A stretch of DNA of 64,000 nt from Cyanobacteriota bacterium (GTDB lineage Bacteria > Cyanobacteriota > Cyanobacteriia > Thermostichales > Thermostichaceae), in contig JANRIL010000020.1 of NCBI GenBank assembly GCA_033764955.1, positions 32,001 through 96,000 of the forward strand, given 5' to 3'. The stretch's first letter is position 1; the number at the start of each line of letters is the position of its first letter. The notes beneath the pieces were generated by a model. The model saw only the letters and a program-made list of their open reading frames with translations, ran no database searches and was not told where the DNA came from. Below, in pieces: positions 1,764-57,356 of this stretch. The translations under genes were made by a program, and so were the position numbers.

Positions 1764-1848
1764 TTTTAACGGCTAGCATGACGGGCGGCAGACAACATCG
1801 AAACCCAGCTAAAATATTCAATCCGTCCGGTGCAAGCGTTTATTAGGC
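1764..1848 (-). mobile_element. Degenerate integron attC site closing the methyltransferase cassette
   Basis: Minus strand GCCTAAT-aaac-GCTTGCACCGGACGG...CTGCCGCCCGTCATGC-tagcc-GTTAAAA, 85 nt; imperfect arms; shares motifs with attC sites at 45270 and 57268. Confidence 0.65.
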
Positions 1849-1940
1849 ATTCACTATAGGTGATTACGTAAGTTATTTCTATTCTCCAACTAGTTAATTA
1901 GGATGGGTTATGATATCAAGCTATTTTAATACCGAACAGC

Positions 1941-3229
1941 CTAAACAGATGAAGCAATCAACTCCCTCTCAGAAACTTCTTTCTCTAGAGAAACAGAGAT
2001 TTCTTCAATATCGTTGAGTAGCCTTACTAAGGCTCTACCCATAGCAAATGCAAGGTTAACAGGAACAGCATTACCAATTTGCTTATATTGAGATGAAAGT
2101 GATCCGGAAAACAACCAACTGTCTGGAAATGTTTGTATTCTTGCATACTCCCTAACAGTTAACGGTCTTGTTTCTCCGGGATGACATCTTTCTGTTTGTT
2201 TCTGAGCAGGGGCGCAAGTCAAGGTTAAGCTTGGTTCATCCCAGGCTAAACGTCGAGCCATACCTGTTTTGCCTCCACTTAGAAAATAACTCTTTTTCAT
2301 ATATTCACGTTGCAACTCTTCAGGTAAATCACGCCAGTATCTCCAGCGGGCACGTAAGCCATTATCTCTGCTTTGCGCTTGGGATACCTTTGACCTTCCG
2401 AGTCAGGTACATCGTGTGGATAAAGCTCACCCGCTTTCAATGCATCTCTCACAGTCATGATACGTTTATAAGGAGAAGGCCATTGAAACACCATATCTTT
2501 TGCCAAGTCTTTACGTATACAAACTAAAAAAAGGCGCTCTCTCTTCTGTGGCACCTGATAGAAAACAGCTTTAAGAACTTTAGGAGGAACTAATTCATAT
2601 CCAAGTTCATAAATGACATTAACAATAGTTTCCAAAGTTTTCCCGTTATCATACTTCAAAAGACCTCTGACATTTTCTGCGACAAAGACTTTAGGCTCAA
2701 TTTCTTTTACAGCTCTTGCAAACTCAAAAAACAAAGTGCCTCGGATATCCTCAAAACCAAGCTTTTTACCAGCATAAGAAAATACTTGGCAGGGAAACCC
2801 ACCAGAAATCAGATCGATTTTCCCTCGATATTCAGAAAAACTTACGCTTGCAATGTCTCCCTCAATAATATTCCAATGAGGGCGATTTCTGCGTAAAGTA
2901 GCACATGAATCATGGTCTATTTCGTTGAGTAAAATCGATGTAAAACCAGCCTTCTCCATGCCAAGCGCAAGCCCACCACAACCGGCAAATAGCTCAATCA
3001 ATCTAAAGTCTCTGATAGGTTTTGAGAGAAGCTCTTTATCCCAAGAACTGTTAAACAAAAGTTGGGCTTCTTCAAAATCTTCCAACTGAGAACGATGATA
3101 TAGACGATAGTTATTGTCGGGGTGACGCAATGGCACAAGCGTTCCTTTACTGTCCCATTTTCTTAAGGTTTCCTTGGAAACACCCAAAATATCAGCAACT
3201 TGTGCAACAGAATAGTATTCGGGGATCAT
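1941..3229 (-). pseudogene. C5 DNA cytosine methyltransferase with N-terminal MerR-type HTH, split by a 1-nt deletion near 2341
   Basis: ELFAGCGG, GGFPCQ, ENVRG, QKRER in ORF 2297-3229; TRD and YKQIGNAVP in ORF 1941-2315; one added base restores GGYWRDLPEELQREYM; AT-rich. Confidence 0.85.
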
Positions 3230-3393
3230 TACTACCTATACTAAACGTTGTTTGTTCAAGCCAATCTAATCGTTGACTGAAAGTGAACCGCTATAGACTC
3301 AACATCATCTTTAGTTAAGCGTGTTCGGCTCTGCTTTAAGTTGATCACGATAGGATGATTGCATCACGAATCTGACAGCCATTTGGATCCCTT

Positions 3394-4338
3394 TTAGTGG
3401 CCTCGCTCATAAGAATAGATATCCCCCACTTGCTTAAATAAACGGGTGGAAAGCTCCGTCAGCGCTTGCTGATCCTGGGGATCCAAAGTCCAGGTAAAGC
3501 TTTGCAGATTGCTCTGGATTTGTTGCCGATCGAGAGTAAATCCTGTAACCAAAGCCTGCACTCCTGCCTGCTGTTTTACCCAATTAAGAGCGATCTGTCC
3601 AATTGTTTTTTGATATTTTTCGGCCAATGGTGCCAGGGCTTCTAGTAACTGCAAAACTCCTCCCCAACCCCCATGCGCTTGAATCATAGCGTTGTAATAA
3701 AATCCACGGGCATGGGCGGATTCGGGATGAGGGGAGCGCACCCCCCGAAACTTGCCGGATAAAAATCCCCCTGCTAGGGAGCCATAGGCAAGCAGGCCAA
3801 TACGATGGTGCAAACAAAGGGCTTGCATCGATTGTTCTACCCGCCGATCAATCAAACTATATTGCACCTGATGGCTGACAATGGGGGCATGTTGCAGGGC
3901 TTTTTCTAGCATGGGAGTGTTGAAATTTGTAACCCCCAGGGTCTTAATCTTGCCCTGCTCTACGAGAGCATTGAGGGTGGCAAAGGTTGAGGAAAAATCA
4001 AGTTGGGCATCCTGCCAATGCACTTGTACCCGATCCAGACAATCCCGTCCCAAATGACGCAGCGAATTTTCAATCTTGTGGCGAATATGACTGGCGGTAG
4101 GGATCCCGCTAAAAAACACCGCCTTTGTCAAAATAGTGCACTCTCTTCCTTTCAAAAGTCGTCCTAATAGTTGCTCACTCCGCCCATAAATATCCGCCGT
4201 ATCAAAACTGTTCACCCCCAAAGCCAGATAGGTGTCGAGGGTGCGACCAATGTCCGATTCGGAAAGCGGCTTCCAACTGCGGTCGTCCAGTTGCCAACAC
4301 CCGACGATCAAAGGGATGAATGGACTGGGTTCACTCAT
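3394..4338 (-). CDS. Aldo/keto reductase
   Basis: FDTADIYG, LGVTNF, QVQYSLIDRR, AYGSLAGG motifs. Confidence 0.9.
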   Translation of the reverse strand: MSEPSPFIPLIVGCWQLDDRSWKPLSESDIGRTLDTYLALGVNSFDTADIYGRSEQLLGRLLKGRECTILTKAVFFSGIPTASHIRHKIENSLRHLGRDCLDRVQVHWQDAQLDFSSTFATLNALVEQGKIKTLGVTNFNTPMLEKALQHAPIVSHQVQYSLIDRRVEQSMQALCLHHRIGLLAYGSLAGGFLSGKFRGVRSPHPESAHARGFYYNAMIQAHGGWGGVLQLLEALAPLAEKYQKTIGQIALNWVKQQAGVQALVTGFTLDRQQIQSNLQSFTWTLDPQDQQALTELSTRLFKQVGDIYSYERGH

Positions 4339-4604
4339 AAATCAACACAAGCAGGTCATCCATAGGGATCCTGGGCTAGCCATTTGGATAAGCGGCTACT
4401 ATCTTAAATACCACATCTCTCTATTTAGATATCTATGTTAAATAGCTAGCTTCCCGGTACACTTAGTCCCCAATAGCTGGTGGGGGGGATGGCCAGCCCT
4501 AGACTCGCCCTGAATGATTGAGATCACTTATCCCCCGCCCCCCCAATCTTCGGTGTGATGGGATCCGTACTATCGGCAGGACATTGTGAAACGTCAGGAG
4601 GTTC

Positions 4605-5270
4605 ATGATGCAGAGATGGCTTTGGCAAATAGGAACCAGTAGTTTGATGGTGCTAACCCTCGGATCGCTTGCCCACGCCCAGGCGATCACCAGCGCTAAG
4701 GTGGTGGATATTCCGCGAGCGCCTGTTTATTGGCGTCAGCCCCCCGCGGCAGAAATCGTGGCAGAAGTAGGAACCCTGGTTACAGAAGGGGGCTATCTGC
4801 GTACCGAAAAACCGGGTAAAGCCCAACTGGAGTTGAGCAATGGCACAGCCTTTCGCCTAGGGGGGGATGCTATTTTGCAGGTTTCCCCCGATTTGCAACT
4901 GAATCAAGGGCAGATCATTGCCTGGACAAAGCCGCATGGATCGGGATCCCCCCCCAGCCAGTCGATCACAACTCCTGTCGCCACTGCCGCCATCAAAGGC
5001 TCGACGGTGTTTATCGAAATGAGTGAGGCGGAGGGGCGCTTCTTTAGTTGGATCGGGGATGTGGAGATTTCTCTACCCGACGGCAAGGGATCCCTCATTC
5101 TCAAAAGCGGGGAAGAGGTGGTGATCCCCTCCAATGCCCAGCAACTGCCCACCCCCCAAAAAATGTCAGCACAGGCTATCCAAGAGCGGCTGACGGAAAG
5201 TGAGATGATCAACGGCTTCAACCGTGAGATGGACTCGTTGCCACAGATCAAGGAAGAACTGCTGCCGTAG
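4605..5270 (+). CDS. Secreted FecR-domain protein
   Basis: Signal peptide (AHA-QA), LRTEKPGKAQLELSNGTAFRLG, ITTPVATAAIKGS. Confidence 0.8.
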   Translation: MMQRWLWQIGTSSLMVLTLGSLAHAQAITSAKVVDIPRAPVYWRQPPAAEIVAEVGTLVTEGGYLRTEKPGKAQLELSNGTAFRLGGDAILQVSPDLQLNQGQIIAWTKPHGSGSPPSQSITTPVATAAIKGSTVFIEMSEAEGRFFSWIGDVEISLPDGKGSLILKSGEEVVIPSNAQQLPTPQKMSAQAIQERLTESEMINGFNREMDSLPQIKEELLP

Positions 5271-5314
5271 CTTAGCCTTGCTCCGTTACGTCCATCCAGT
5301 CAGAAGCAGGGATA

Positions 5315-7282
5315 GTGGTTATGACTTGGCGAATACCGTGGATCATTGGCACTGGCCTGGGCATGGGGGCACTGATGGCTACCCTCAGCCTGCATCCACT
5401 ACTGGGCTATCCGCTCACGCTGATTGAGGAGGTCTTGACCAGTCAGTTCTTTCTCTGGCGGGGCAGCCGGGATCCCCATCCGGATGTGGTGATCTTGGCT
5501 CTGGATGAAGACAGTTTGCGCCTGCGGGATCTGTTTGAACCGGAAGAGTTGCAGGATCAGCCGGAATTACAGGCGATGGCGCGGGGGGTGCCCTGGCCTC
5601 GTCAAGTCTTTGCTAGTGCGGTCCAGAAACTCACCGACGCGGGAGCAAGCAGGATTGGTTTTGATATTTTGTTTGACGAACCCAGCTTTTTTGGGGAGGC
5701 CGATGATCAGGTCTTTGGAGACGCAGTGGCTGCCTTTCCGGGGAAGACGGTTTTTGCCGTAACCGATACTTTCATTTCCAGCACTCTCAGCTCTGGTCTC
5801 TATAACATCCGTGTTGAACCCACCCTGATCGAAGCCCTGCAGCGGGAGCGGGTTGAGCTGGGGTTGGTACATTTTTATCCGGCTAGCCATCAACAACTGT
5901 TGCGGATCCCTGGCCGTCACACTCTGGCTAACCGTACCACCACCGATATTCCCCCCTTTTCCCTAGTGACCACCGGGGATCCCGTGCCGGAACAGGATAT
6001 CGGCATCAACTATGCCGGAACCACCGGCAGCTACCCCACCTATTCCTTTTGGATGCTGTTCGATCCATTTTTTTGGCAGACCAATCTAGAAAATGGGGCG
6101 GTGTTTCGGGGCAAAACGGTGTTGATCGGCAGTACCGCTCTTTTGGCACAGGATCTCTGGCCGACCCCCTTTACCCCACAAATGCCGGGGGTAGAGATTC
6201 ATGCCCATGCCATTGGCACGTTGTTGGGGAGGCAAGGGCTGCGCTCCCTCCCGACCGCTTATCAGCTTGTTTTGGTGGGCATGACAGGTCTGCTGACGGG
6301 TCTGAGCCTGTTTGGGGTCAAACGCCTAGGGATGAAACTGTTACTGGCAACGACAGGGTTGACCCTGGGGATCGGGCTGGGCTACTGGAGTTTTTTGGCC
6401 TTGTGGATCTTACCGATGGGCGGGATCCTAACCAGCATAGGGCTGACGGGGCTGGTGGATATCACCGCTACGGGACTGCGAGAACAGCGGCAACGACAAC
6501 AACTGCGGCGGATTTTGGATCGACGGGTGGCGGCTTCGGTTTTGCAGGAAATTTTGGCTCAACCCCAAGCCTTTGCTGACTCGTTGGGGGGGAGGCGGTG
6601 TCAGGTGGCCGTTTTATTTTCGGATATTCGCTCCTTCACAACCCTCTCTAGCCAAATTTCCCCAGAGACATTGGTGACATTGCTTAACCGCTATTTTGCC
6701 TGCATGGTGGAGCCAATTTTGCAGCAGAAGGGGGTGGTGGACAAATTTATTGGGGATGCGGTAATGGCGGAGTTTGGTTGTCCGATCTTCCGGGATGCTG
6801 CCACGGAAGCCTTGGCCTCGGTGCGGGCGGCCTTACAGATGCGACGATCCCTGTTAGGTCTGCGGGAGCAACTGCGCCAAGAACAACAACCGTTGATTTT
6901 TCATGGGATTGGCATCAATTTTGGGGAGGTGATTGCCGGGAATCTGGGATCCCCAGAAAAAATTGAGTATACGGTGATTGGGGATGCGGTAAATGTGGCC
7001 TCGCGGATTGAGGGTATGACCAAAGATCTGGGGCACGATATTTTGATCTCGCAAGCGGTTTATCAACTGGTGCAGGATCAGATCGAGGCGGTCAACTTAG
7101 GATCTATTTATTTGAAAGGAAAGCCGGATCCGGTGGTGCTGTATGGAGTAATTGACGAAAAAGGGGGATCCGGGCAGACCCATCGGCAAGTGCAACAGGA
7201 CTACCAAGCCTGGTCGCAGAAAATGATTGGGGATCCCGTTCCTCCCTTTCCAGCCGAACCGGTCAAAGGGATCCCTCAATAA
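5315..7282 (+). CDS. CHASE2-domain class III adenylate cyclase
   Basis: PWPRQVFA, GFDILF and MPGVEIHA (CHASE2); 3 TMs; FSDIRSFT, DKFIGDAVM, YTVIGDAVNVASRIE. Confidence 0.9.
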   Translation: MVMTWRIPWIIGTGLGMGALMATLSLHPLLGYPLTLIEEVLTSQFFLWRGSRDPHPDVVILALDEDSLRLRDLFEPEELQDQPELQAMARGVPWPRQVFASAVQKLTDAGASRIGFDILFDEPSFFGEADDQVFGDAVAAFPGKTVFAVTDTFISSTLSSGLYNIRVEPTLIEALQRERVELGLVHFYPASHQQLLRIPGRHTLANRTTTDIPPFSLVTTGDPVPEQDIGINYAGTTGSYPTYSFWMLFDPFFWQTNLENGAVFRGKTVLIGSTALLAQDLWPTPFTPQMPGVEIHAHAIGTLLGRQGLRSLPTAYQLVLVGMTGLLTGLSLFGVKRLGMKLLLATTGLTLGIGLGYWSFLALWILPMGGILTSIGLTGLVDITATGLREQRQRQQLRRILDRRVAASVLQEILAQPQAFADSLGGRRCQVAVLFSDIRSFTTLSSQISPETLVTLLNRYFACMVEPILQQKGVVDKFIGDAVMAEFGCPIFRDAATEALASVRAALQMRRSLLGLREQLRQEQQPLIFHGIGINFGEVIAGNLGSPEKIEYTVIGDAVNVASRIEGMTKDLGHDILISQAVYQLVQDQIEAVNLGSIYLKGKPDPVVLYGVIDEKGGSGQTHRQVQQDYQAWSQKMIGDPVPPFPAEPVKGIPQ

Positions 7283-7313
7283 GCATAAGCTTCCTTCAAG
7301 ATAGGCTTAGGGT

Positions 7314-8270
7314 TTAGGCCGCTTGAGCCTGCTGATCCGCAAAGCTACTTGTTTCTGCACCCACCTCCAAAGGGGGGTAGAGTTTATAAAATTTCTCGAT
7401 GGTTTCCCGAAAGCCCTCCTCTGGAGTTTCCGACCCCTTCAGTACCTCTGACTCATTGAGGGCAATCATTTTCTCCACTTCGTCGAGACTGCTGAGAGCT
7501 TCCTGCTTGAGAAGGCTGAGCAGATCATTGGAACGTACCAATCGCAGCTCATCTTCCGCTTGGCGAAGGGATTGGGTGACAGCTTGCAGTTGGGCTTGCT
7601 GCTGCTGCCAGATGGACTCAGCTTGCTTAGCACGGGCTTCGGCTCGCAGTTGCGCTTGTAGGGCATCATCCCGTTGATTGCTGATCCGCAGGATTTCCGC
7701 TTGGGCTTGTTGCAGTTGGGCTTGCAGGTTGGTTTGTTCGGCTTCACTGCGGCTGAGGGCGGCTTCGGCACGATGGGCACGATTTTCGGCAGCTTGGTGC
7801 AATTGGCGAGATTCCAGCAGTTGCAAACGCAAGACCGCAATTTCATCCTCCAGTTGACCCAACCGTTGCAGTTGCTGGTGGAGCTGGGTGTTTTCCTCTT
7901 CTAGTCGTGCGACAAGTTGCTGGCTGCTTTCCAGGGCGGCTTGAGTCGTGGTGGCTTGAGCCACAAGCTGATCGTAGTTGCTGATCATCTCCCCCAAGCT
8001 ATCGGCTTGGCTGGCCAATTCTGCCTTGAGGGTTTCGATCCGTTGATCGGTGGATTCCAGTTGTTTTCTTAGGCGTTCCGCTTGCTGCACCTGCTCGTGC
8101 AGAGGCTGCATCTGTTTGAACAAATAAATAAATTTTCGTTGCAAATCAGAATGAGAAATATCGAGGCGAGCGTAAGCATCATTGAGGGTTAAATACGCAT
8201 CGCAGAGCTTGGTATAGCGGTTCGCTACAGAATCAGAATGGGTCATGGCGGTGGCGGGTGGGGTTTGCAC
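7314..8270 (-). CDS. Coiled-coil hypothetical protein
   Basis: 318-aa Q/E/A/L-rich heptad pattern; no recognisable domain. Confidence 0.7.
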   Translation of the reverse strand: MQTPPATAMTHSDSVANRYTKLCDAYLTLNDAYARLDISHSDLQRKFIYLFKQMQPLHEQVQQAERLRKQLESTDQRIETLKAELASQADSLGEMISNYDQLVAQATTTQAALESSQQLVARLEEENTQLHQQLQRLGQLEDEIAVLRLQLLESRQLHQAAENRAHRAEAALSRSEAEQTNLQAQLQQAQAEILRISNQRDDALQAQLRAEARAKQAESIWQQQQAQLQAVTQSLRQAEDELRLVRSNDLLSLLKQEALSSLDEVEKMIALNESEVLKGSETPEEGFRETIEKFYKLYPPLEVGAETSSFADQQAQAA

Positions 8271-30422: not shown

Positions 30423-32501
30423 ATGAACGGAAACAGTCCGAAGTGGCTTCTAAAGTCACTCAGCTCTTTGACACTGGCATCCCTAGCTGTTTTGCTGCCA
30501 GTTGCTCTAGTTGGTTGCGGCTCTGATGACAGCACTACTGCTGTAACCCCCACACCCACACCCACGCCCACACCTACCCCGGCTCCCACACCTACCCCAA
30601 CTCCGGTTCCTGTAACCGCGTTCGACGTTGTCTTCACTCCTGGAGACATCGTTGCAAGTAGTGATGTCATCACCTCCTTTATCAACGGAGATGGAGCTGA
30701 CGTTGATGAGGATGGTGTTATTGAAGTTGGTTTAGAGCCTGGTATTTACCCCGAAGCCATCCTGATCGAAGTTGATGATGTCTTGATAGCTTCTACCACC
30801 GGCTCTTCTAACGATGTTCGAATTATCGGTGCCGGTTCTGGCAGCATCACTGGAACAACTGCTCCTGTTACCATTGCTTCCAACAATCTTGGAATTGTCA
30901 TTGAAAATCTGAGCTTGGTCAACGACACCCAAGATGACTCTACTGAGTACTGCATTGATGCTACTGAGGCAAGAGAGCTAACTGTAGATGGTATCCAGTG
31001 CTTCGTTGCTCCTTCTTTTGCAACTCCTGCTCAACGCGGCGTGGGGATTGGATTTGGATCTGATGCCGCCGCGATTGAGAATGACAACCTGAATGTCATC
31101 AACAGCCAATTCTATATCGGTGGTGGTGAAGATTCTGCTGCTATCGCCATTGATGGCAACGTAAGTGGAATTGTGTTGAGTGCCGAAGGTAACGGTTTCT
31201 TCCTTGGCTACATCGATGCTGACCAAAACCTTGAAACTGGATTAGATCCTGAATTCGTTGGTTCTATCGGTTCTGGTTCTGCTCCCATCTATGTTGGTGA
31301 TACTGTCACTGGCTTGGTCATTGATGCTGTTGATGGGAACCTCTTTGCTGGTGGTGACTATGTCATCCGTGACCCTAATGGTTTGGGAACCACTGCTTTA
31401 GAGCGTGAAGACATTATTCGCTCTGGTGAATTTGAAAAGGCCGTGGGTGATGGTTTCACCGATGGAGCCGTGATCAACAGCAGCACTGGCAACATCTACT
31501 ACCTGATTCAAGATGCCATTGACGAAGTTGATGGTCTCAACCCCTCTGTTGTGGTTGGCCCTGGCGACTTCACTGTCGAAGGCAACATTGTGATGGATGT
31601 GGACGGTCTAACCTTAACTGCTCTGGACGGTCCTTCCGAAACTGAGATTGACTCTGTCAAGATCCTTGCCTCTAACACCACCCTGGGTGGAACTCCCACT
31701 TCAGGTGCTGGTAACGGCTTTACTATCTCTGGTATCTTCACTGGCGATTCCTTTGCTGGTGATTACCAAGTTGCTTTGGGTGAGTGTGATAACAACTTTG
31801 CTCCTGTTATCAATGTCACAGTTGCCTACAACGACTTCTTGACCCCATCCACCACCGATGTTTACTCCAGCTTGGTGTTCTGTGATGGTGCGGCTGGTGA
31901 AGCTTACAAGAATAACTTCTTTGCTGATCCTAGCTTTGCTGGAATTTTCATCTTCGAAGCGGCTATCCGTAGCGTCTTCATTACTGAAAACGTATTCCAG
32001 TACAACGTCACTGGCGGTGAAGGCTTCATTGTTGATGCTCAGACTGGTGAACTTGGACAAAATACTCCTTTCGATGTTGGTTCCATTTCTGGCAACCTCT
32101 TCATTGATACAGGAGCCTATGTCGCTGGTGACACCCCTGTTTACCTGAATACCTTTGTCAACCTAGCTCCTGCCTCTGGACCAGGACCTTTTGCTAGTGC
32201 TTTAGAAGGTGAAGGAACTATCTTGGTTGCTTTCCGTAACAACGTGATTGAGCCAAATGGTGCTTTCATTACTCCAGCTGAGCAATTCCCTGCCACTGGC
32301 TTCTGCGGACGTGATGAAATAATTGATATCAACGTAGCTGGCACTCAGTTGCTTAACTTTGTTGATACTGCTGGATTCTTTACTACTCCTCAGATTGTGT
32401 GGGGTAACCCTGAATCTGCTCTTTGTACTGAGTTGAGCCAAGGAACTGCTCCTGCTGTCTTCCTACAGCCTTTCCCAGAAGGTATCATGTTCCAACCTTA
32501 A
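30423..32501 (+). CDS. Large acidic lipoprotein with PT linker and probable parallel beta-helix domains
   Basis: Lipobox LVGC, (TP)n linker, beta-helix cap-like motifs LEPGIYPEAILI and IQDAID...VGPGDF. Confidence 0.75.
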   Translation: MNGNSPKWLLKSLSSLTLASLAVLLPVALVGCGSDDSTTAVTPTPTPTPTPTPAPTPTPTPVPVTAFDVVFTPGDIVASSDVITSFINGDGADVDEDGVIEVGLEPGIYPEAILIEVDDVLIASTTGSSNDVRIIGAGSGSITGTTAPVTIASNNLGIVIENLSLVNDTQDDSTEYCIDATEARELTVDGIQCFVAPSFATPAQRGVGIGFGSDAAAIENDNLNVINSQFYIGGGEDSAAIAIDGNVSGIVLSAEGNGFFLGYIDADQNLETGLDPEFVGSIGSGSAPIYVGDTVTGLVIDAVDGNLFAGGDYVIRDPNGLGTTALEREDIIRSGEFEKAVGDGFTDGAVINSSTGNIYYLIQDAIDEVDGLNPSVVVGPGDFTVEGNIVMDVDGLTLTALDGPSETEIDSVKILASNTTLGGTPTSGAGNGFTISGIFTGDSFAGDYQVALGECDNNFAPVINVTVAYNDFLTPSTTDVYSSLVFCDGAAGEAYKNNFFADPSFAGIFIFEAAIRSVFITENVFQYNVTGGEGFIVDAQTGELGQNTPFDVGSISGNLFIDTGAYVAGDTPVYLNTFVNLAPASGPGPFASALEGEGTILVAFRNNVIEPNGAFITPAEQFPATGFCGRDEIIDINVAGTQLLNFVDTAGFFTTPQIVWGNPESALCTELSQGTAPAVFLQPFPEGIMFQP

Positions 32502-44616: not shown

Positions 44617-44779
44617 GATGTATGTGGTTTGGGGATCCCATCCGCTCTTGATCACGGAAGTTCAGCCTGCCAACAGAAAGGCTTAATCAGCCTGGGATTT
44701 TGTCAATGGATCCCGCCTGCAAATGAGGCAGATCTTGGGGGTGTAGCCTGATTGCCGTGGGTGATTGGGAACGTTAGAC

Positions 44780-44973
44780 CTCCCAATCTGACTGCTGCTC
44801 AATTAGCGAGTTTGTATCGTATTAGCTATCAACTGACTTTTACGATGCTTCAACCTATTCATTTAATTTGTGTTGATGCGCGAACTCAAAATGTGTACGT
44901 CCTCGCTGGATATGACGAAGAGCTTGAGTTTCAAATTCTGCTCAATGGGGAGCCATCTGATGAGCCAGACTAA
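44780..44973 (+). pseudogene. DUF6888-like small protein (start codon apparently degraded)
   Basis: TAAQLASLYRISYQLTFTMLQPIHLICVDARTQNVYVLAG..EFQI..NGE. Confidence 0.6.
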
Positions 44974-45300
44974 TTATTCTGCAATGACTGATGCTGAATT
45001 AAAGCAATATTTTCTTAAACATCGTGGAGATCAAGCTGCTTTTCAACCATATAGTCATTCCAAATAAGAATGCGACCACCTAAATCTTGATATCCAAGCT
45101 TTGAGAGATTTTGGGTTTCTCAAACTAAATTGGAACAACTATATCTAGACAGAATTAATCAACGTCCACACAGGATTATTGCTAGTCCTGATGATCCTGA
45201 TTTTGATGAAAAAGTGCAAGCAGCAATTCGGCAAAAACTAAAAGCAGCAAGAAGCCGCCGCAATCAGCAGGCTAATAATTCAAATGCAGCGGACGGTTGA
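44960..45300 (+). pseudogene. DUF6887-like protein interrupted by a MITE
   Basis: MSQTNYSAMTDAELKQYFLKHRGDQAAFQPY|LDRINQRP...; removing 92 nt restores an 82-aa ORF. Confidence 0.75.
45052..45141. mobile_element. 90-bp MITE with imperfect TIRs and TA duplication
   Basis: TATAGTCATTCCAAATAAG vs reverse complement TATAGTTGTTCCAATTTAG (15/19 including TA); TA at 45050-51 and 45142-43. Confidence 0.75.
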
Positions 45301-45357
45301 GAACTGCTGGTGCTGAGTTCGAGGTCATCTACCGCCGCTGATTTGAGGCGGTTATCA
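45270..45357 (+). mobile_element. Integron attC site (solitary)
   Basis: GGCTAAT..CAAATgCAGCGGaCGG...CCGCCGCTGATTTG..GTTATCA; arms pair with two unpaired bases. Confidence 0.7.
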
Positions 45358-45366
45358 AAAAATGGG

Positions 45367-46875
45367 TTAGAGATCATCTAGGTGGATCCCGTCTGGCCAC
45401 GGGCGATCCCGATAGGGATACCAATAGTTCTTGCGCTCCATGATGTAGTCGATATGCACATGCTTGGGTTCGCGGAAAGCATCTAACCCTTCTTCCCCCA
45501 GTTCTCGCCCATTGCCACTCCAGCGCATTCCTCCAAACGGGGCGGCATCGTTGTCCGTTAAGGGATCATTCACCCAAAAAGTTCCCGCTTTGATGTTCTC
45601 CATCGCTTTCAGAGCATATTCCAAGCTGCGGGTATAGACGGAAGCCCCCAATCCAAACCGAGAATCGTTAGCCATCATAATCGCCTGATCCGCATCTTCG
45701 GCTTCGATGAGAGCAATCACCGGCCCAAAAATTTCTTCGGTGGTGGGCAGGCTACCGTGGCGGACGTTGGTTAACACCGTTGGCTCAAAAAAATGTCCGC
45801 ACCAATCCGGGATCCGTTGACCGCCCCGCAGCAGGGTGGCTCCCTCCTGGCAGGCTTGCCACACCTGTTTTTCCACTTTCTCCACAGCGTCGGCGGAAAT
45901 GAGTGGGCCAATGTCGGTTTCGGGGAGGAGGGGATCCCCCACCTTGAGGGAATGCACATGCTCCAGGAGTCGCTCACAAAACTCCTGAGCAATCGATTTG
46001 ACCAGATAGATGCGCTTAGAAGAGGTACAGACCTGTCCGGCGTTGAGAAGCCGTGCCCAGGCTACCCCCCGCACCGCTACCTCCAGATCCGCATCTTCAA
46101 AGACGATAAATGGATCGACTCCCCCCAGTTCCAGGTTGACCTTTTTCAGGTGTTGTCCGGCTACGGAGGCGATATGGCGACCCACCGCCGTCGATCCGGT
46201 AAAAGCAATCAGATCCACATCGGGGTGTTGAATCAGCGCCTCTCCGGTGGAGCCATCTCCGGTAATCACATTGACGACTCCCGGCGGCAAGATATCGTAG
46301 GCTTTCGCCATCAGGAGATTGGAAAGGGGATTTTGGTGAGGAGGCTTGCAAACTAGCGTATTGCCAGCGGCGAGTGCGGGGGCAACCTTCCAGGCCATCA
46401 GCAGGAGGGGAAAGTTGAAGGGCACGATCGCCGCCACTACCCCATATGGCTCTTTGATGGTGAAATTCAGTTGATGGGGAGCCACGGGAGGAATCGAGTT
46501 GCCCCGGCTGGCGCGTCCCACTTCGGCATAGTATTCAAAGCAAGCCGCCACCCACTCCACACAGTCCAGCGACTCGATCAAGGGCTTACCGGATTCACGG
46601 GTCAAGAGGAGGGCTAACTCATGCTCCATCCCCCGAATGCGGGATCCCACCTCCCGTAACAAGGCGGCTTTCTCTAGCCCCGGCATTTTCCACCAATCCC
46701 GTTGAGCTTGGCGAGCGGCTCGCACCGCCCCATCCACATCTTCAGCAGAACAGTCTGGTACGGTACTGAGGGTTTCTAGGGTAGCGGGATTGTGGATAGA
46801 ACGGCTTTGCTGGCTCTGTGAGGGGATCCACTGCCCATTGATATAAATCAGCTCCACACTCCCTATCCCCCGCAT
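45367..46875 (-). CDS. Aldehyde dehydrogenase
   Basis: PFNFP, FTGST, LELGG, NAGQVC, EEIFGP. Confidence 0.93.
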   Translation of the reverse strand: MRGIGSVELIYINGQWIPSQSQQSRSIHNPATLETLSTVPDCSAEDVDGAVRAARQAQRDWWKMPGLEKAALLREVGSRIRGMEHELALLLTRESGKPLIESLDCVEWVAACFEYYAEVGRASRGNSIPPVAPHQLNFTIKEPYGVVAAIVPFNFPLLLMAWKVAPALAAGNTLVCKPPHQNPLSNLLMAKAYDILPPGVVNVITGDGSTGEALIQHPDVDLIAFTGSTAVGRHIASVAGQHLKKVNLELGGVDPFIVFEDADLEVAVRGVAWARLLNAGQVCTSSKRIYLVKSIAQEFCERLLEHVHSLKVGDPLLPETDIGPLISADAVEKVEKQVWQACQEGATLLRGGQRIPDWCGHFFEPTVLTNVRHGSLPTTEEIFGPVIALIEAEDADQAIMMANDSRFGLGASVYTRSLEYALKAMENIKAGTFWVNDPLTDNDAAPFGGMRWSGNGRELGEEGLDAFREPKHVHIDYIMERKNYWYPYRDRPWPDGIHLDDL

Positions 46876-51116: not shown

Positions 51117-52376
51117 ATGGCTTGGTCGCGTCGTCATTTTTTGAGCAGTAGTGCGGCTTTGGCGCTTGGTTCTTGTGCGGCTCGCCGTACGGCTCCTGCT
51201 GTGGCTTCCTCCATCCGTTTTTGGACGATGCAGCTCAAGCCTACCTTTGATGCCTATATGCAGGAGCGGCTGACCGCCTTCGCCGGCATGGCGGAAGGTG
51301 TTCCTGTCGAGTGGGTGGATGTTCCTTGGGGGGACATGGAAAACAAGATTCTCACGGCGGTAGCAGCCAACACAGGGCCGGATGTCGTGAATCTCAATCC
51401 CCAATTTGCCTCCCGCCTCGCCGAAAAAAACGCCCTCGTCGATCTGGCTCCCCTACTTAGCCCCTCCCAGCAAGCCGTTTATTTCCCTAACCTCTGGCGA
51501 GCCAACCAATTGGGATCCGTCACCTTTGGCTTGCCTTGGTATGTCGCCACCGATATCACCCTTTACAACCGCGACCTGCTCCGTCAAGCGGACTGGGATC
51601 CCGATCAGCCCCCCCAAACCTACAGCCAGCTAGCCAGTGCCGCCATTCAGATCCGGCAAAAGACCGGCAAGCCTGGTTTTATGTTGACAATGGATGGCAG
51701 CCAGATGTTAGAGGCGATGGTGCTGATGGATATGGCCCTGCTGGATGAGGAGGGTCAAGCCGCCTTTGACGATGCCATCGGGCGAGAAGCTTTTGCCTAT
51801 TGGGTGGATCTGTTGCAGGCGGGCGGGATCCCACGGGAAACCCTGACGGAAAGCCACCGCCGTGCTATCGAGCTTTATCAGGCGGGAGAACTGGCCATGC
51901 TCTTGACGGGACCGCAGTTGCTCACGCAGATCGTGGAGAATGCCCCTCAGATCGCTCAGGTTTCTGATGTTGCCCCCCAAATCGCCGGCAGCCAGGGACG
52001 GAAAAGCGCCAGTGTCATGAATCTAGTGATTCCCCAAAAATCCCAAAATATCCCCGCCGCCCTTCAGTTTGCCCTGTTTCTCACCAACAGTCCCAATCAA
52101 TTGGCCTTTGCTCAGATCGCCAATACCCTCCCTTCCACCATCGCCACCGTCTCGGATCCCTATTTCACCCAGTCCACCTCCGACAGTCTGCTGGAGAAAG
52201 CCCGCCTTCTCAGTGCCGCTCAACTCAGTCAATCGGAAGTGCTGATCCCGCCCATGCAGGGTCTCGATGATCTCCGCAAAATTATCTATGAAGAACTGCA
52301 ACTGGCGATGCTGCAACAAAAAACAGTTGATCAAGCCGTTACCGATGCCGCCACTCGTTGGAACCAACGCCTCTAA
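51117..52376 (+). CDS. Sugar ABC transporter substrate-binding lipoprotein
   Basis: Tat-like SRRHFL, LGSC lipobox, WVDVPW, PDVVNLNP. Confidence 0.85.
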   Translation: MAWSRRHFLSSSAALALGSCAARRTAPAVASSIRFWTMQLKPTFDAYMQERLTAFAGMAEGVPVEWVDVPWGDMENKILTAVAANTGPDVVNLNPQFASRLAEKNALVDLAPLLSPSQQAVYFPNLWRANQLGSVTFGLPWYVATDITLYNRDLLRQADWDPDQPPQTYSQLASAAIQIRQKTGKPGFMLTMDGSQMLEAMVLMDMALLDEEGQAAFDDAIGREAFAYWVDLLQAGGIPRETLTESHRRAIELYQAGELAMLLTGPQLLTQIVENAPQIAQVSDVAPQIAGSQGRKSASVMNLVIPQKSQNIPAALQFALFLTNSPNQLAFAQIANTLPSTIATVSDPYFTQSTSDSLLEKARLLSAAQLSQSEVLIPPMQGLDDLRKIIYEELQLAMLQQKTVDQAVTDAATRWNQRL

Positions 52377-52521
52377 CCGAGAGTGTTCTCAAAAAATCTT
52401 GGAACCAACCGTTGAAAAAATAGTCTTAAAAAAGTAGTCAAAGAAACCGTTTTCCGAAGTTTTTTCGACTCAACAGATGAGTGTTTAATACTTAACCATC
52501 CCCAAACAGCGGAGAGCCACA

Positions 52522-53529
52522 GTGAGGAAGATGCTCATGACGTTGTCAAAATCAGTCATCGCCTGTCTCCTTTTGGGACTATTGACAACCGCCTGTCAAC
52601 CCCAATCCTCTGATAACTCCCAGAGCACCCCTTCCGAAACCACCCCCCCTGCTTCCTCCCCCACCCCCCAACCCTCTCTTGATCCGGCAGGGGATCCCTC
52701 ACTCCCCCCTTCCCCCCAGGTTGAGGCAAGCCCTGAACTAACCACTGAACCAATAGCAATGGGGGATAGCAGTCAAACCTCCCTCGATTGGGCAGGAGTC
52801 TATCAAGGGGTTGTGCCCTGTGCCAGTTGCTCCGGCATTGAAACTACCCTCACCCTCAATCCCGATCGTTCCTACCGCCTGACCCTCCGCTATCTGGGTG
52901 AGTCGGATGAGGAGATAGAAAGGAGCGGAACGTTTAGCTGGAATGAGCAAGGCAATACCATCACCCTCAGCAATAGTGACAATGCCCCTAGCCAATATCT
53001 CGTGGGAGAAAATCAGTTGATTCAACTGGATCAGCAAGGGGAACGGATTACGGGGGGGCTAGCCGACCAATACATCCTCAGCAAAATGGATAGTTCCAGT
53101 GAGAGTTCCAGTGACAGCTCCAGTCGCTTATCCCAGGCTAGTCCGTTGGGTGAGGAGCCATCCACAACTTCTAAAAATCCTCTGTTTGATACCCGCTGGC
53201 AACTGATTGAGCTAAGAGGGGAACCGATAGAAGTTCGTTCCGATGCCCAAGCGGTACCATTTCTTCTCTTCAACACTAAGGACAATGCCTTACAAGGCTC
53301 TGGCGGCTGTAACCAATTGCGAGGATCCTATCAACGGCAAGCGGGCAACCGTCTGAGTTTCTCGCAGGTGGCTACCACCCAAAAAGCCTGTGCCGATATG
53401 GCTCTGGAATCTGCTTTTTTGGAGGTATTGGGGATGGTGGACAACTACACCCTCAGCAATGACCAGCTCAGTTTGCATAAAGCTAAAATGGCTCCTCTCA
53501 TGCGTCTTCAGGCGGTAGAAGCTCCGTAA
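52522..53529 (+). CDS. NlpE-N plus META domain lipoprotein
   Basis: LTTAC lipobox, LDWAGVYQGVVPCASCSGI, GSGGCN, TQKAC. Confidence 0.85.
   Translation: MRKMLMTLSKSVIACLLLGLLTTACQPQSSDNSQSTPSETTPPASSPTPQPSLDPAGDPSLPPSPQVEASPELTTEPIAMGDSSQTSLDWAGVYQGVVPCASCSGIETTLTLNPDRSYRLTLRYLGESDEEIERSGTFSWNEQGNTITLSNSDNAPSQYLVGENQLIQLDQQGERITGGLADQYILSKMDSSSESSSDSSSRLSQASPLGEEPSTTSKNPLFDTRWQLIELRGEPIEVRSDAQAVPFLLFNTKDNALQGSGGCNQLRGSYQRQAGNRLSFSQVATTQKACADMALESAFLEVLGMVDNYTLSNDQLSLHKAKMAPLMRLQAVEAP
53477..53529 (+). repeat. Left copy of diverged 53-bp direct repeat (3' end of META gene)
   Basis: 43/53 identical to 57929-57981 by manual alignment. Confidence 0.85.
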
Positions 53530-53599
53530 ACCGCCCTTATTCACGACCTATCCACAACATTCTCAGGGATCCAAGAGGCCGAAGATGCCTGATTACGCC

Positions 53600-54413
53600 A
53601 CCCTGCCGTTTTCCGCCGCATGGGTTTGGCTGTCGGACAATCTCTCTGAGCGAGCGCCAGGTGACTGAGCGAGGACTGACGGTGGAGAGCCTCAAGTTGG
53701 GGTGGGGGATGGTGTTTGTTACCAAGACCCAGGCTCCGGCAAGGAGACGCTGATCCGCTTGGAGGCTGAGCGGGGATTTGAAGGGATCCCTGGGGCTAGT
53801 AGGTCGCAGCAACGCTCGGAGATGATGCGCCAGATTTTGCGGCGATTGGATCTGGTGAATGCCGCTTGGGTGCGGCAGGAGATGGCAGCGATTGATCAGG
53901 GAATTAAGGAGCGGCGTTCACCTCCAAGCTGGGTGCAAAGTGCGATGGGACAGGCAGAGACCCTGGATCAGGTGGAGACCGAAGATCCGCAATAAGGTAG
54001 ATCGAGAGCGGGCTTACGTGGTGGATGCCGATGGCACGGTAGTCCTGACTAAAGACGGTGAGGCCTTGTCGGTGGACTTCACCTACGAGGAGATGCAATT
54101 GATTCGGGGCAAGGTGTTTACCCACAATCATCCCAAAGGGGGATCCTTTTCTCGTGAAGATATCAACTTTTTGCTAACCGTCTACCCATCAGAGATGAGA
54201 GCAGTGAGTCGAGATTACCGATACTCAATGAAACTGCCCGATAATCCTATCGACGCATTCTTCGAGATCAGAAAGATATTTGACCGGGTTAAAGAGTCTG
54301 TGCGACTGGAACTGGTAGAGCGAGTCAGGTCTGGCGAATCAACCCTTATTGCAGCCGAGCAGCAGTTTATGCACTTGTTAGCTGGCTTAGTTACGGGTGG
54401 TGATTGTAGTTGA
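53600..54413 (+). pseudogene. Phage MuF head-morphogenesis protein remnant with C-terminal JAB/MPN-like domain, frameshifted and cut by cassette insertion
   Basis: FPPHGFGCR.ISLSERQV.ERGL (53610 frame), GFEGIPG, then HNHPKGGSFSREDI. Confidence 0.65.
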
Positions 54414-54518
54414 AAGGTTACTGGTTGGGATTCGATGCTCTAGCCAACCTTCAAGACAGCGGCTATTCAGAAAATAAGGCGCTATACTGACAGATATTTG
54501 ACCATCGAAGATAAAACT

Positions 54519-56168
54519 ATGTTGAGAATTCAAGATTTAAACCTTGGTTTTAATGATGCTGAAAACTATAAAAGAAGTGAGAATAAGAGCCTTTTAAATA
54601 AAGTGTTTTTTAGGACAGACGAGCTTGATAGGCTTTGCGAGAGAAGCACGTTTTTCCTGATTGGTGAGAAAGGAACTGGAAAAACTGCTTGTGCTGTCTA
54701 CTTATCGAATAACGATTACAAAGATACACTATCATCAATTAATTATATTAGAGAGACGGACTATCAAAAGTTTGTTCAGATGAAGAAGAGAGAGCATCTT
54801 GCTCTTTCTGATTATGTAGATATTTGGAAAGTAATTCTATATCTACTGATCAGCAAAAACGTTAGTGAAAATGAGCCAAATAGTTTACTATTACCTAAAG
54901 CTATTAAGTTTCGCAATATTAATTCGGCTGTAGATGAGTATTATGCAAGAGCATTTTCTCCAGAAATCATAAATGCAATTAAGTTTGTAGAGAAATCCAA
55001 AATAGCTGCTGAACTTGTATCAAAATATGCCAAAGCTAGCGGAGAAGAAAGCGAAGAAATAGCGTTTTCTGAAAGCCTTTTTCAAATCAATCTCATGTAT
55101 GTCCAGAAGAAATTTGAAGAAGCATTCTCATCTCTAAAACTACAGAAGAATCATCTGCTGTTCATAGATGGAATTGATATTAGACCATCACGAATTGATT
55201 ATGAAGACTATCTTGAATGCGTTAAAGGCTTAGCAAACGCAGTATGGGCAATCAATAACGATGTATTTCCCAAAATAAAAGATTCAAAAGGACGGCTTAA
55301 AGTTGTGCTTCTAGTAAGACCTGATATTTTTGATTCCATAGGTTTGCAAAATCGGAATAATAAGATTAGAGATAACTCTGTTCTATTAAATTGGAATACA
55401 ACTTATAAAAATTACAGAAACTCCAAGTTGTTTGAAATGGCTGGAAAGTTGGTGGGGACTCAGCAAAATCCGCAAGTTCAGTATGATAAGGCTTGGGATT
55501 ACTATTTTCCCTACACAATCGAAAATAAAGCTAATAACAAGCAAAGCGAAAATGATCCATCATTTATTGGTTTCTTGAGATATTCTCTTTATCGCCCTAG
55601 AGATATTGTCACAATGCTCTCTATTCTTAAAGAAAATTTTATTGAGCAGAGACAAGATCCTAATAGAGTATTTTCTGAAGCGGATTTCTTTAACGCTGAG
55701 TTTGTCAGAAAGTATTCGGAATATCTGTTAGGTGAAATAAAGGATCAGTTGTCTTTTTACTACACGGAAAATGATTATCAACTTTTCCTTAAATTCTTCG
55801 AGTACTTGAAAGGAAAGAGCCAGTTTTCGTATGATGATTATCTCAGTGCTTATCAAGCGTTTGTAGGATATCTAGATTCAAATTCAATTAGAAGACCAAA
55901 ATTTTCTGAAGCGCCTGACGTATTTCTTCAATTTCTCTATGAGTTGAACGTCATTTTTTATATTGAGAAAGTATCGGGCGGAAACTTCATAAGACTATGC
56001 CTTCGAGAGCGAAACCCAACTAACATTTCTCCAAAAGTTAAAACACATCAAACATATCAAATTCACTACGGACTAATCGAAGAGCTTAACGTAGGTAAGA
56101 AATACACTACGCTTGAAGTAGCGTTTCGGCAGGCTTTCAATAGACCTCAGAAAATTGAGAATCAATAA
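54519..56168 (+). CDS. Sll1717/FunZ-type P-loop ATPase (cassette 1)
   Basis: LNLGFNDAE, GEKGTGKT, LFIDGID, RPDIF, RPRDI; very AT-rich; alternative TTG start 54498. Confidence 0.75.
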   Translation: MLRIQDLNLGFNDAENYKRSENKSLLNKVFFRTDELDRLCERSTFFLIGEKGTGKTACAVYLSNNDYKDTLSSINYIRETDYQKFVQMKKREHLALSDYVDIWKVILYLLISKNVSENEPNSLLLPKAIKFRNINSAVDEYYARAFSPEIINAIKFVEKSKIAAELVSKYAKASGEESEEIAFSESLFQINLMYVQKKFEEAFSSLKLQKNHLLFIDGIDIRPSRIDYEDYLECVKGLANAVWAINNDVFPKIKDSKGRLKVVLLVRPDIFDSIGLQNRNNKIRDNSVLLNWNTTYKNYRNSKLFEMAGKLVGTQQNPQVQYDKAWDYYFPYTIENKANNKQSENDPSFIGFLRYSLYRPRDIVTMLSILKENFIEQRQDPNRVFSEADFFNAEFVRKYSEYLLGEIKDQLSFYYTENDYQLFLKFFEYLKGKSQFSYDDYLSAYQAFVGYLDSNSIRRPKFSEAPDVFLQFLYELNVIFYIEKVSGGNFIRLCLRERNPTNISPKVKTHQTYQIHYGLIEELNVGKKYTTLEVAFRQAFNRPQKIENQ

Positions 56169-56202
56169 TTGGAGTGAAGTTGAAATCTACTGAGTTTTCG
56201 CC

Positions 56203-56289
56203 AGCTAACAACCCGGTTGGAGCGGACGTGCATAGTTCTTTTGTCTATCGTTCTAGTTTTCTGGTTGCCGCTCAACCGGAACGTTGAGC
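56203..56289 (+). mobile_element. attC site 1
   Basis: AGCTAAC..CCGGTTGgAGCGG...CCGCTCAACCGG..GTTGAGC, 87 nt. Confidence 0.88.
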
Positions 56290-56342
56290 CTAGGACGGTC
56301 GTGCTGAGACACTGAAGTGGATCATTCAACGGGAGGTATTTT

Positions 56343-56711
56343 ATGTCCGTATTTCGCAAAGATCAGAACGAGGTACACAGCCTTCACGGCAACCACATCG
56401 TCGGTGTTGCCACGCCTACCAGCGGCGCAAAGCAAGTTGAGATGTGGCACGGTCGCATGGATGCAAACTCCGCTACCCCACCGCACAGCCACGACACCGA
56501 AGAAGTTGTCCTGTTCCTGAAAGGCAGTGGTCGAGCCACGGTTGCCGACGCGGAAGTTCGCTACCACGCAGGGGACACACTGATCCTGCCGGCTGGCCAT
56601 GTGCACCAAATCTTCGCCGACACCGACAGTGAGTTCGTTTCAGCCAGTCCAAGCGGTGGCACGGTCAAACTTCCAGATGGTGTGGTTCTGGATCTTCCAT
56701 GGCGCAAGTAG
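56343..56711 (+). CDS. Cupin domain protein (cassette 2)
   Basis: PHSHDTEEVV, GDTLILPAGHVH; GGAGG RBS; GC-rich. Confidence 0.88.
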   Translation: MSVFRKDQNEVHSLHGNHIVGVATPTSGAKQVEMWHGRMDANSATPPHSHDTEEVVLFLKGSGRATVADAEVRYHAGDTLILPAGHVHQIFADTDSEFVSASPSGGTVKLPDGVVLDLPWRK

Positions 56712-56716
56712 CTTCG

Positions 56717-56785
56717 GCCCAACAACAGGTTCCAGTGCGACGTCCTCGCCTTCGGCGAGGACGCGCCTGAACCTGGGCGTTATAC
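56717..56785 (+). mobile_element. attC site 2
   Basis: GCCCAAC..CAGGTTcCAGtGCG-a-CGTCCTCGCC-TTC-GGCGAGGACG-CGCCTGAACCTG..GTTATAC, 69 nt. Confidence 0.92.
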
Positions 56786-56845
56786 GGCACAATAAATGAT
56801 GGTTTATGCAGATGAAGAATAGTCTATGTCGGTAAAAGAAGAAGT

Positions 56846-57253
56846 ATGTCGATAGAGGAAGAAGCCAAAGCGGTAGTGCGTCACTACGTCGAAGCATTTA
56901 ACCAAGGTGATTTAGATACACTGAAGGCACTGCTCACTGAGGATGCTGAGATTCAGGGTGTAATGGGCAAAGGTCTTATTGAGAAGATTGAGCCTATTTG
57001 GCGACAACTCATCGAGGGCTACGGTATGCAACTTAAGATCGAGGAGTTAATCGCGGAAGGCAATATCGTGGCAGCAAGGTATGTTGAGACAGGAGTTTTC
57101 AGATCACCAGCGTTTGGGAATCAGCCAACGGGAAAATCTTACGAGCTTGTTGCAATGGAATGGTTTGAAATAGAAGGGGGTAAAGTTAAACGCCGTTGGG
57201 GCGCTAGGGATGCTGCATCGCAGGCACGGCAACTAGGCATTCCTCTGCTTTAG
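56846..57253 (+). CDS. SnoaL-like ester cyclase / NTF2-fold protein (cassette 3)
   Basis: VVRHYVEAFNQGD, IEELIAEGNIVAAR, PTGKS, GKVKRRWG. Confidence 0.88.
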   Translation: MSIEEEAKAVVRHYVEAFNQGDLDTLKALLTEDAEIQGVMGKGLIEKIEPIWRQLIEGYGMQLKIEELIAEGNIVAARYVETGVFRSPAFGNQPTGKSYELVAMEWFEIEGGKVKRRWGARDAASQARQLGIPLL

Positions 57254-57267
57254 CCTGAATACATGCC

Positions 57268-57356
57268 GTATAACATAATTCGCTTGGAGTGGACGGAACA
57301 GAGGTTATCTGTGGGTGTTCAAGGTTATCTACCGCCGCAAGACTTCACCGTTGGGC
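57268..57356 (+). mobile_element. attC site 3 (degenerate arms)
   Basis: GTATAAC..GCTTGGAGTGGACGG...GTTCAAGGTTATCTACCGCCGCAAG..GTTGGGC. Confidence 0.75.

Follow-up and report, generated by a model that had tools for sequence, protein, structure and literature searches.

How does a bacterial chromosome come to hold attC sites, each closing a gene unit, at separate places with no integron integrase beside them? The question is raised by a 64,000-nt stretch of DNA, here called the window (positions 32,001 to 96,000 of contig JANRIL010000020.1, assembly GCA_033764955.1), from the draft genome of a bacterium of the cyanobacterial family Thermostichaceae. A first-pass annotation of the window had described three attC sites at three loci and read them as cassettes scattered across the chromosome by an integrase acting in trans. 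We find that the three window sites are real attC sites of one family, with matches far beyond chance, and that this family is the same as that of the arrays beside two intact integrase genes (intI) elsewhere in the genome. We consider it likely that the sites are attC of the host's chromosomal integron system, each marking the 3′ end of an off-platform cassette, that is, one away from intact intI. These off-platform cassettes exist in addition to arrays, not in place of them. Below, the contigs of the draft are cited by number (the window lies on the 168-kb contig C42), other genomes carry the letter G, and G|TT denotes the crossover point at R′.

The boundaries given for the three sites, each running from R″ to R′, and their strands proved exact, as did the two common motifs, GGACGG and TTC.A.GT..TCT.CCGCC, which are invariant in a three-way alignment (69% mean column identity; each site ends in CCGTT or CGGTT). 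A strict two-block regular expression matched nine places in the 3.8-Mb genome, three in the window and six on six other contigs, and most of these six have textbook ends (GCTAAC at the 5′ end; GTTAGGC, GTTAGAC or GTTATCG at the 3′ end). The alignment of all nine has the geometry of attC, with inverse core sites R″ (..TAAC) and R′ (GTT..), unequal R–L spacers of five columns on the left and six on the right, and an L stem in which GG(A)CGG, with its conserved bulged A, faces CCGCC. The outer L pairs covary (GC/AU/CG), and compensatory changes occur in five of the 19 pairs. With the structure as written, 86.5% of cells are paired compared to 78.7% in shuffles, none of 500 of which equalled it, and sliding the partner by 1–3 columns drops the pairing to 25–63%.

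Two covariance models were built: R1 from the nine regular-expression sites, window sites included, and R2 from 12 attC sites of the arrays beside the two full-length intI genes, with no window sequence. Run on the window with filters off, R2 recovered all three sites and two more at the third locus (Table 1), while the best unrelated match reached 12.7 bits and was not significant. The three sites first described are therefore all genuine, but the third locus is a run of three, two of which had been missed. Compared with the general core words RYYYAAC for R″ and GTTRRRY for R′, GTT stands at R′ in all three claimed and both additional sites, and AAC at R″ in site 3 and both additional sites. 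The R′ ends of the two solitary sites, GTTAAAA and GTTATCA, had been singled out as non-consensus; the words are present as described, but array sites beside intI also end in GTTAAAC, GTTATCT and GTTATAA.

A reading of the repeats as some other structured family at gene ends (a repetitive extragenic palindromic (REP)-like element, a terminator or a small non-coding RNA) would agree with an Rfam scan of the window at gathering thresholds, which returned one tRNA and no attC family, with the weak folding of sites 1 and 3, and with the very wide spread of the family, which has matches at E ≤ 1e-4 in 33 of the class's 41 genomes (per genome, between 0 and 95; 71 in the present one under the stricter filters of this class survey). 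Against it stand the R/L box geometry, which is that of attC, and the tandem arrays of one open reading frame (ORF) and one site beside intact intI, in integron orientation, both here and in G014, G019 and G035. We consider this reading highly improbable.

Integrases were searched for with NCBIfam TIGR02249 at its curated cut-off of 265 bits, which was passed by none of 14 control genomes. Two full-length intI genes without stops were found, at C9:19–960 (463 bits) and C38:63588–64529 (451 bits), together with four further fragments or broken matches on C36, C4, C30 and at 182.6 kb of C38. That no integrase lies near the window sites, as first stated, held for the window and for the rest of its 168-kb contig (no TIGR02249 match at E ≤ 0.001). 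Residues 4–313 of the C38 protein align with Vibrio cholerae IntI4/VchIntIA (PDB 2A3V; E 6e-87), and the alignment spans the R/H-x-x-R/H/Y catalytic motifs and the IntI-specific insertion that distinguishes IntI from Xer. Close relatives of the IntI (64–76% identity) are overwhelmingly from cyanobacteria, of many orders, and, taken with the gene content, they put the genome among the filamentous cyanobacteria. Judged by these genes, two intact putative IntI exist elsewhere in the genome that would be able to act in trans.

Both intact genes adjoin arrays. Beside the C9 intI there are eight attC sites in the orientation opposite to the gene (C9:1689–8480), and beside the C38 intI there are four (C38:54043–61836). 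A genome search with R1 gave 78 matches at E ≤ 1, with tandem runs directly beside both genes, divergent as integrons should be. The suggestion that cassettes are scattered instead of being held in one array is consequently not supported, as classical arrays of eight and four sites beside intI coexist with other multi-site clusters. As a separate observation, four of the six intI matches lie within 1 kb of contig ends (C36:180–860, C4:4–123, C30:655–831 and C9:19–960), and we therefore place assembly breaks at intI copies; there may be complete integrons in the genome beyond the two seen.

The extent of the scatter was measured with R2 on the whole genome, a draft of 3.8 Mb in 48 contigs (89% complete, GC content 0.515). 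Scores were computed for only 150 of 756 first-look candidates, and the counts that follow are lower bounds. There are at least 78 matches at E ≤ 0.01, or at least 79 with the fifth window site, and by IntegronFinder's 4-kb rule they form 48 clusters on 27 of the 48 contigs: 33 singles, six pairs, six triples, two clusters of four and one of eight. Intact intI is adjoined only by the cluster of eight and one of the clusters of four, i.e. by 12 of the 79 sites, and the other 67 lie away from both genes. The window's own contig has five separate attC loci and no intI. Six of the 33 single sites are within 4 kb of a contig end, and some singles are followed by a cassette-type leader; a few of the 33 therefore probably belong to arrays. 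The survey was extended to genomes of this class that are closed or nearly so, and gave 28 sites in 17 clusters in G035 (one intI over the cut-off), 24 sites in 10 clusters in G019 (one intI over the cut-off plus fragments), 24 sites in seven clusters in G014 (one intI over the cut-off) and nine sites in seven clusters in G037 (intI fragments only). With like scatter in these genomes, fragmentation of the assembly is not the cause.

The four intI fragments, one of which (C38:182627–182934) is 2 kb from a single attC, speak for each locus having once been an independent integron that lost its own intI by deletion or by decay on the spot. The 48 clusters, however, far outnumber the six intI genes and fragments, the window's contig is free of intI matches at the threshold given above, and host genes abut the solitary cassettes on both sides. 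We judge an origin from independent integrons to be improbable.

Some features of the DNA next to R′ were recorded in the same survey. A word of about 25 nt (GTTATCGAATTGAT.ACAGAC.) directly follows the R′ of four attC sites (C4:15557, C11:33788, C27:18905 and C27:112546), and is also found 250 nt past the 3′ end of the intact C38 intI (C38:64780) and at C7:103493. Beyond the word the DNA is unrelated between copies, and the 3-kb stretches downstream have only about 29 nt in common; possibly the word is a favoured secondary target, or else another element has its edge there. A fuzzy scan for a 12-nt word after several R′ sites was too permissive (303 matches) and was dropped. About ten cassettes open with a common leader after R′ (GTT...C.GCTT.GT.CT.GGTGG), for example those at C9:5779, C11:36513, C11:12919, C12:18163 and C27:112979 and at 57350–57375 of the window. 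A position matrix from the first 32 nt of cassettes, tried for the prediction of left ends, was rejected, the starts being too heterogeneous and the motif confined to a subset.

How the off-platform sites arose can be approached through their right junctions. A crossover between two attC sites should keep the consensus 3′ of G|TT, whereas one with a non-att partner should not. Position 7 of R′ is C or T in 30 of 31 array-internal sites and in 21 of 33 singles (Fisher p = 0.0013), and the full A[GT][ACG]Y motif is present in 23 of 31 and 11 of 33, respectively (Fisher p 0.0013). When only sites of at least 40 bits whose GTT is intact are counted, 22 of 23 array-internal sites have C or T at position 7, compared to eight of 16 singles (p = 0.0015). 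Cluster-terminal sites have C or T there in 10 of 15 cases, and GAT replaces GTT in singles only (3/33). Related sites are not independent observations in this test. The junction statistics favour crossovers at the canonical point with ordinary non-att DNA.

By the mechanism that we propose, IntI in trans would have recombined a folded attC with a secondary chromosomal G|TT (GWT) site, the attC × attG reaction of Loot et al., leaving solitary cassettes that would then have decayed and been rearranged. At locus 1 the gene would have been frameshifted; at locus 2 decay would have comprised 5′ truncation, fusion to a duplicated host fragment and insertion of a small repeat; locus 3 would be an array fragment inside a phage-derived module. 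The window cassettes are, on this account, mostly decayed relics. The first-pass proposal of an integrase scattering cassettes in trans finds support in two full-length intI genes on other contigs, attC on 27 of the 48 contigs and R′ junctions that fit non-att partners, although no left junction in the window is proven.

At locus 1, cassette 1 lies between an aldo/keto reductase gene and an Rrf2 regulator gene (Table 1), and its crossover G|TT falls at 1770|1769, some 35 nt ahead of the start codon of Rrf2 (1733). Its left end is plausibly at the G|TT of 3303|3302 (GTTGAGT), a position inferred because the ATG follows about 75 nt further on and because the cassette that begins after 56283 starts in a similar way; no attC was found in the upstream spacer at 3240–3330 with R1 or R2 at E ≤ 10. 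The cargo is a MerR-type helix-turn-helix (HTH) domain fused to a C-5 cytosine DNA methyltransferase (Pfam; PADLOC MTase_II). It is split into overlapping ORFs at 2297–3229 and 1941–2315, and conserved continuation upstream in the second frame indicates a single-base frameshift near 2338. No endonuclease lies between attC and the putative left end, nor does any other ORF of at least 124 amino acids there have a family match. The locus therefore holds an orphan, broken methyltransferase, and not the restriction-modification cargo that had been assigned to it.

At locus 2, the OprB/SLH porin gene with its terminator-like hairpin lies upstream of the cassette, and a convergent aldehyde dehydrogenase gene has its stop codon 14 nt from the crossover at 45351|45352. 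The cargo, first called toxin–antitoxin-like, is a pair of domains of unknown function (DUF6888/DUF6887), and that label is not retained. The cassette is truncated on its 5′ side, where DUF6888 would have its start codon, as judged from the homologue in G007 (C392 of that genome). The left flank of the cassette is a duplicated fragment of fmt, and homology to the C39 copy of fmt stops where homology to the G007 gene pair starts. A GTTAGAC at 44773 might have passed for a left junction, but it lies inside the loop of the duplicated hairpin; the left end of cassette 2 is therefore not an IntI-type junction. The segment 44660–44779, whose 3′ part looks like L′-spacer-R′, was considered as a decayed upstream attC and ruled out, being the 90% duplicate of the fmt 3′ end and hairpin.

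DUF6887 is interrupted by a repeat resembling a miniature inverted-repeat transposable element (MITE), which has 28 blastn matches in the genome, its own copy included (89–98% identity among those listed), and is lacking in the homologous pair of G007, a member of another genus. Further observations concern the surroundings of this locus. In G007 (C392, about 570–680) the DUF6888/DUF6887 pair is followed by the same R″ word, GGCTAAT, and then by a shorter, different palindrome that ends in GTTGTGA and has no R2 match at E ≤ 1; this palindrome may belong to another attC subtype. The aldehyde dehydrogenase gene, unlike its neighbours, has no DNA match at E ≤ 1e-8 in 22 genomes of the same family and may itself be accessory. 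The palindrome GGGATCCC occurs in 4,915 copies in the genome, compared to about 65 expected from base composition, and is by far the commonest octamer, while the classical cyanobacterial HIP1 word GCGATCGC has only 109 copies. Copies of GGGATCCC in the window include those at 44633–44640 and 45386–45393, and the left end of the duplicated fmt fragment starts at this motif.

Locus 3 is built in the classical way, as one ORF followed by one attC, repeated three times, with spacings of 496 and 571 bp from G|TT to G|TT. The 556-residue product of cassette 3a was first taken to be defence-like; it is a Sll1717-family P-loop ATPase, scoring 208.6 bits with NCBIfam NF047389 (cut-off 75). PADLOC gave no credible match, and the description is not supported. 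Cupin, SnoaL-like and P-loop ATPase cargo is of a kind common in chromosomal cassettes. Each site had also been said to close an AT-rich, co-oriented gene unit. The ORF is co-oriented at every site and the GC content of the units of sites 1 and 2 is 0.41 each, but the bias is mild in the unit of site 3 (0.46). After the last G|TT a fourth cassette begins and breaks off within about 100 nt. Searches with R1 and R2 at E ≤ 10 found no attC at 57400–58000 or near 54380–54440. Clean GTT junctions, as originally implied, are thus lacking at the left end of locus 2, which is not of the att type, and at locus 3, which runs past its last G|TT into the truncated cassette.

The three cassettes occupy the middle of a module that is present three times in the genome (the window, C34:48801–50221 and C11:40116–41547), each copy having an unrelated middle, of only about 700 bp in the C34 and C11 copies. 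The right arm carries a phage virion-morphogenesis gene, for which the C11 copy scores 35.7 bits with TIGR01635, just below the cut-off of 37.65. In the left arm, a conserved N-terminus (..QILRRLD.V.AAWVRQEMAAIDQ..) runs into different C-terminal parts. By analogy, the three-copy module is like a polymorphic cassette system derived from phage tails. A direct repeat of 81 nt (75% identity; 53474–53554 and 57926–58002) brackets a 4.4-kb region between the NlpE/META and DJ-1/PfpI genes and looks like the ends of an inserted island.

Table 1. Features of the window. Hairpin energies are for the bottom strand with the R box enforced.
Feature	Positions	Strand	R2 match (positions; bits; E)	Hairpin (kcal/mol)	Details
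Rrf2 regulator gene	1272–1733	−			flank of cassette 1
attC site 1	1764–1848	−	1754–1853, minus strand; 43.3; 6e-11	−5.4	R″ GCCTAAT, R′ GTTAAAA; solitary
Cassette 1	1770–3302	−			about 1.53 kb; GC 0.41
Aldo/keto reductase gene	3394–4338	−			flank of cassette 1
Duplicated fmt piece	44632–44792	+			160 bp, 90% identical to C39:14283–14441; fmt 3′ end and downstream hairpin
Cassette 2 remnant	44792–45351	+			GC 0.41; DUF6888 (to 44973) and DUF6887 (from 44984), Pfam
MITE-like repeat	45050–45143				about 95 bp, inside DUF6887; splits ORFs ending at 45067 and starting at 45130
attC site 2	45270–45357	+	45265–45367; 68.6; 7e-19	−16.6	R″ GGCTAAT, R′ GTTATCA; solitary
Aldehyde dehydrogenase gene	45367–46875	−			convergent with cassette 2
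Module left arm	53613–53916	+			78–82% identical to C11:40116–40409 and C34:48801–49093
Cassette 3a	54430–56283	+			GC 0.35; left limit provisional; 556-aa Sll1717-family P-loop ATPase (54498–56168), then attC 56203–56289
Additional attC	56203–56289	+	56198–56300; 35.2; 2e-8	−14.2	R″ AGCTAAC, R′ GTTGAGC; third locus; R1 28.6 bits
Cassette 3b	56284–56785	+			cupin (56343–56711; Pfam Cupin_2) and short attC 56717–56785
Additional short attC	56717–56785	+	56712–56795; 22.9; 1.6e-4	−24.1	R″ GCCCAAC, R′ GTTATAC; third locus
Cassette 3c	56780–57356	+			SnoaL-like protein (56846–57253; Pfam SnoaL) and attC site 3
attC site 3	57268–57356	+	57263–57366; 49.1; 1e-12	−2.5	R″ GTATAAC, R′ GTTGGGC; third locus, last of three
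Truncated fourth cassette start	57352–57460	+			leader GTTGGGCTGCT.AGTTC, as after C11:36513
Module right arm	57460–57930	+			gene of phage virion morphogenesis (tail completion S-like); the window copy is broken

The window evidence on insertion is mixed. Loci 1 and 2 have canonical G|TT right junctions, 14–35 nt from host genes, but later rearrangement has marked locus 2 at its left end and locus 3 at both. It could be argued that the off-platform sites are pieces of former large arrays moved by general rearrangement, through repeats, GGGATCCC, MITEs and phage-derived modules, with no off-target insertion by IntI. Locus 3, a multi-cassette fragment that ends in a truncated cassette inside a three-copy module, would be such a piece, and on its left locus 2 is joined, at a point that is not of the att type, to a duplicated host fragment starting at a GGGATCC motif. 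The lack of conserved gene order around the loci in relatives and the presence of two or more sites in 15 of the 48 clusters point the same way. Loci 1 and 2, in contrast, consist of exactly one cassette each, with a right end at the canonical G|TT close to a host gene. Moreover, the attC consensus after G|TT is lost specifically at single and terminal sites, and random breakage would not hit the crossover point; the GAT junctions, too, fit the published GWT target. We therefore regard general rearrangement as the sole source of the scatter as rather unlikely, though it is the most serious competitor to off-target insertion.

Several points weigh against our reading of the sites as cassette ends placed by the host's integron system. 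Cassette 2 is joined to the fmt fragment at a point that is not G|TT, and at locus 3 rearrangement explains the repeated module and the truncated fourth cassette as well as insertion does. The AAT at R″ of sites 1 and 2 pairs as G.T in the top strand but leaves C.A mismatched in the bottom strand; this variant also occurs in array members, e.g. C9:6460 and C30:21358. Bottom-strand folding had been named as a check on the sites, and it separates them: compared with shuffles, site 2 has a clear fold (top strand z −4.0, bottom strand z −5.6), but sites 1 and 3 have no advantage over them (z 0.05 to 0.81; 0.05 and 0.44, respectively, on the bottom strand) and their hairpins are weak. The median score is 43.7 bits for singles compared to 59.5 for internal sites, and age may partly explain the weaker consensus of the former. 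The members of R2 were first located with R1, making the model independent in sequence and not in discovery; the draft state of the genome and the lower-bound census count here as well. Finally, no empty site was found, the flanking genes of loci 1 and 2 being on different contigs or far apart in 30 relatives and 22 genomes of the family, a comparison set with no second genome of this genus. When metagenomes were scanned with 24 nt of the lptB-like gene, one contig came up, which has only 62 nt in common with the window and is not from a close relative.

Sites 1 and 3 are members of the family by sequence and architecture but poor folders, and are read as drifting; by their predicted folds, these two of the three claimed sites may no longer recombine. 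The assignment of all the sites to the chromosomal integron system of the host remains the reading that we prefer. A wider one, in which the integron of this cyanobacterial lineage would be a distributed system that keeps most cassettes (67 of 79 sites here) off-platform at dozens of loci through IntI crossovers at ordinary G|TT or G|AT, is put forward tentatively, as a possibility of somewhat less than even weight. Were it true, these genomes would be a natural large-scale counterpart of the laboratory attG result, and would offer a context for the pick-up of host DNA beside attC, as with the 160-bp fmt piece at cassette 2. The scale is noteworthy in any case: a cyanobacterial genome of 3.8 Mb has about 79 attC sites, spread over 48 loci, and closed genomes of the class show like scatter. 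The junction statistic is a simple sequence-only signature of non-att crossovers and can be used on any genome set.

Among known systems, one comparison is with sedentary chromosomal integrons, of which the Vibrio superintegron, whose attC family is VCR, is an example. Like the superintegron, the present genome has a homogeneous, species-specific attC family, cassettes mostly of unknown function, and an intact chromosomal IntI, with 46–50% likeness to VchIntIA over the full length. It differs in having no single large array, the largest cluster holding eight sites and 67 of the 79 sites lying off intact intI.

Off-platform sites offer the other comparison. Three routes to off-platform attC clusters have been distinguished, namely off-target action of a distant IntI, loss of intI, and rearrangement (Cury et al. 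2016, via Ghaly et al. 2021). Single sites have been named SALINs, and IntI has been shown to insert cassettes at chromosomal sites with only GWT in common, from which later excision can take flanking DNA along; in the SALIN survey, 1847 of the 2469 genomes with SALINs carry just one (Loot et al., bioRxiv 10.1101/2022.09.11.507474). Loci 1 and 2 are SALIN-like in consisting of one cassette and one attC with no att partner or integrase near, in a right junction G|TT that falls within GWT, and in having IntI elsewhere in the genome. They differ in number (about 33 single sites in this 3.8-Mb draft, compared to mostly one per genome in the survey), in the cyanobacterial host, cyanobacteria receiving no mention in the accessible text of Loot et al., and in the left junction of locus 2, which is not of the att type; insertion is here inferred from the DNA sequence. 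Locus 3 resembles the CALINs of Cury et al. (2016), with three attC in 1.2 kb, one ORF each and no integrase within 4 kb, but it differs in its setting, the variable middle of a phage-tail-like module present in three copies, and in its end, where a fourth cassette is truncated. The collection of literature searched contained no paper on integron scatter in cyanobacteria, and the accessible text of IntegronFinder 2.0 does not mention them; supplements were outside the search. Off-platform cassettes and their attG origin are already published, and the window adds no new principle. In summary, by the features compared, the elements of the window would be SALINs and CALINs as published, and the integrase, the attC family and the organisation of the arrays agree with this.

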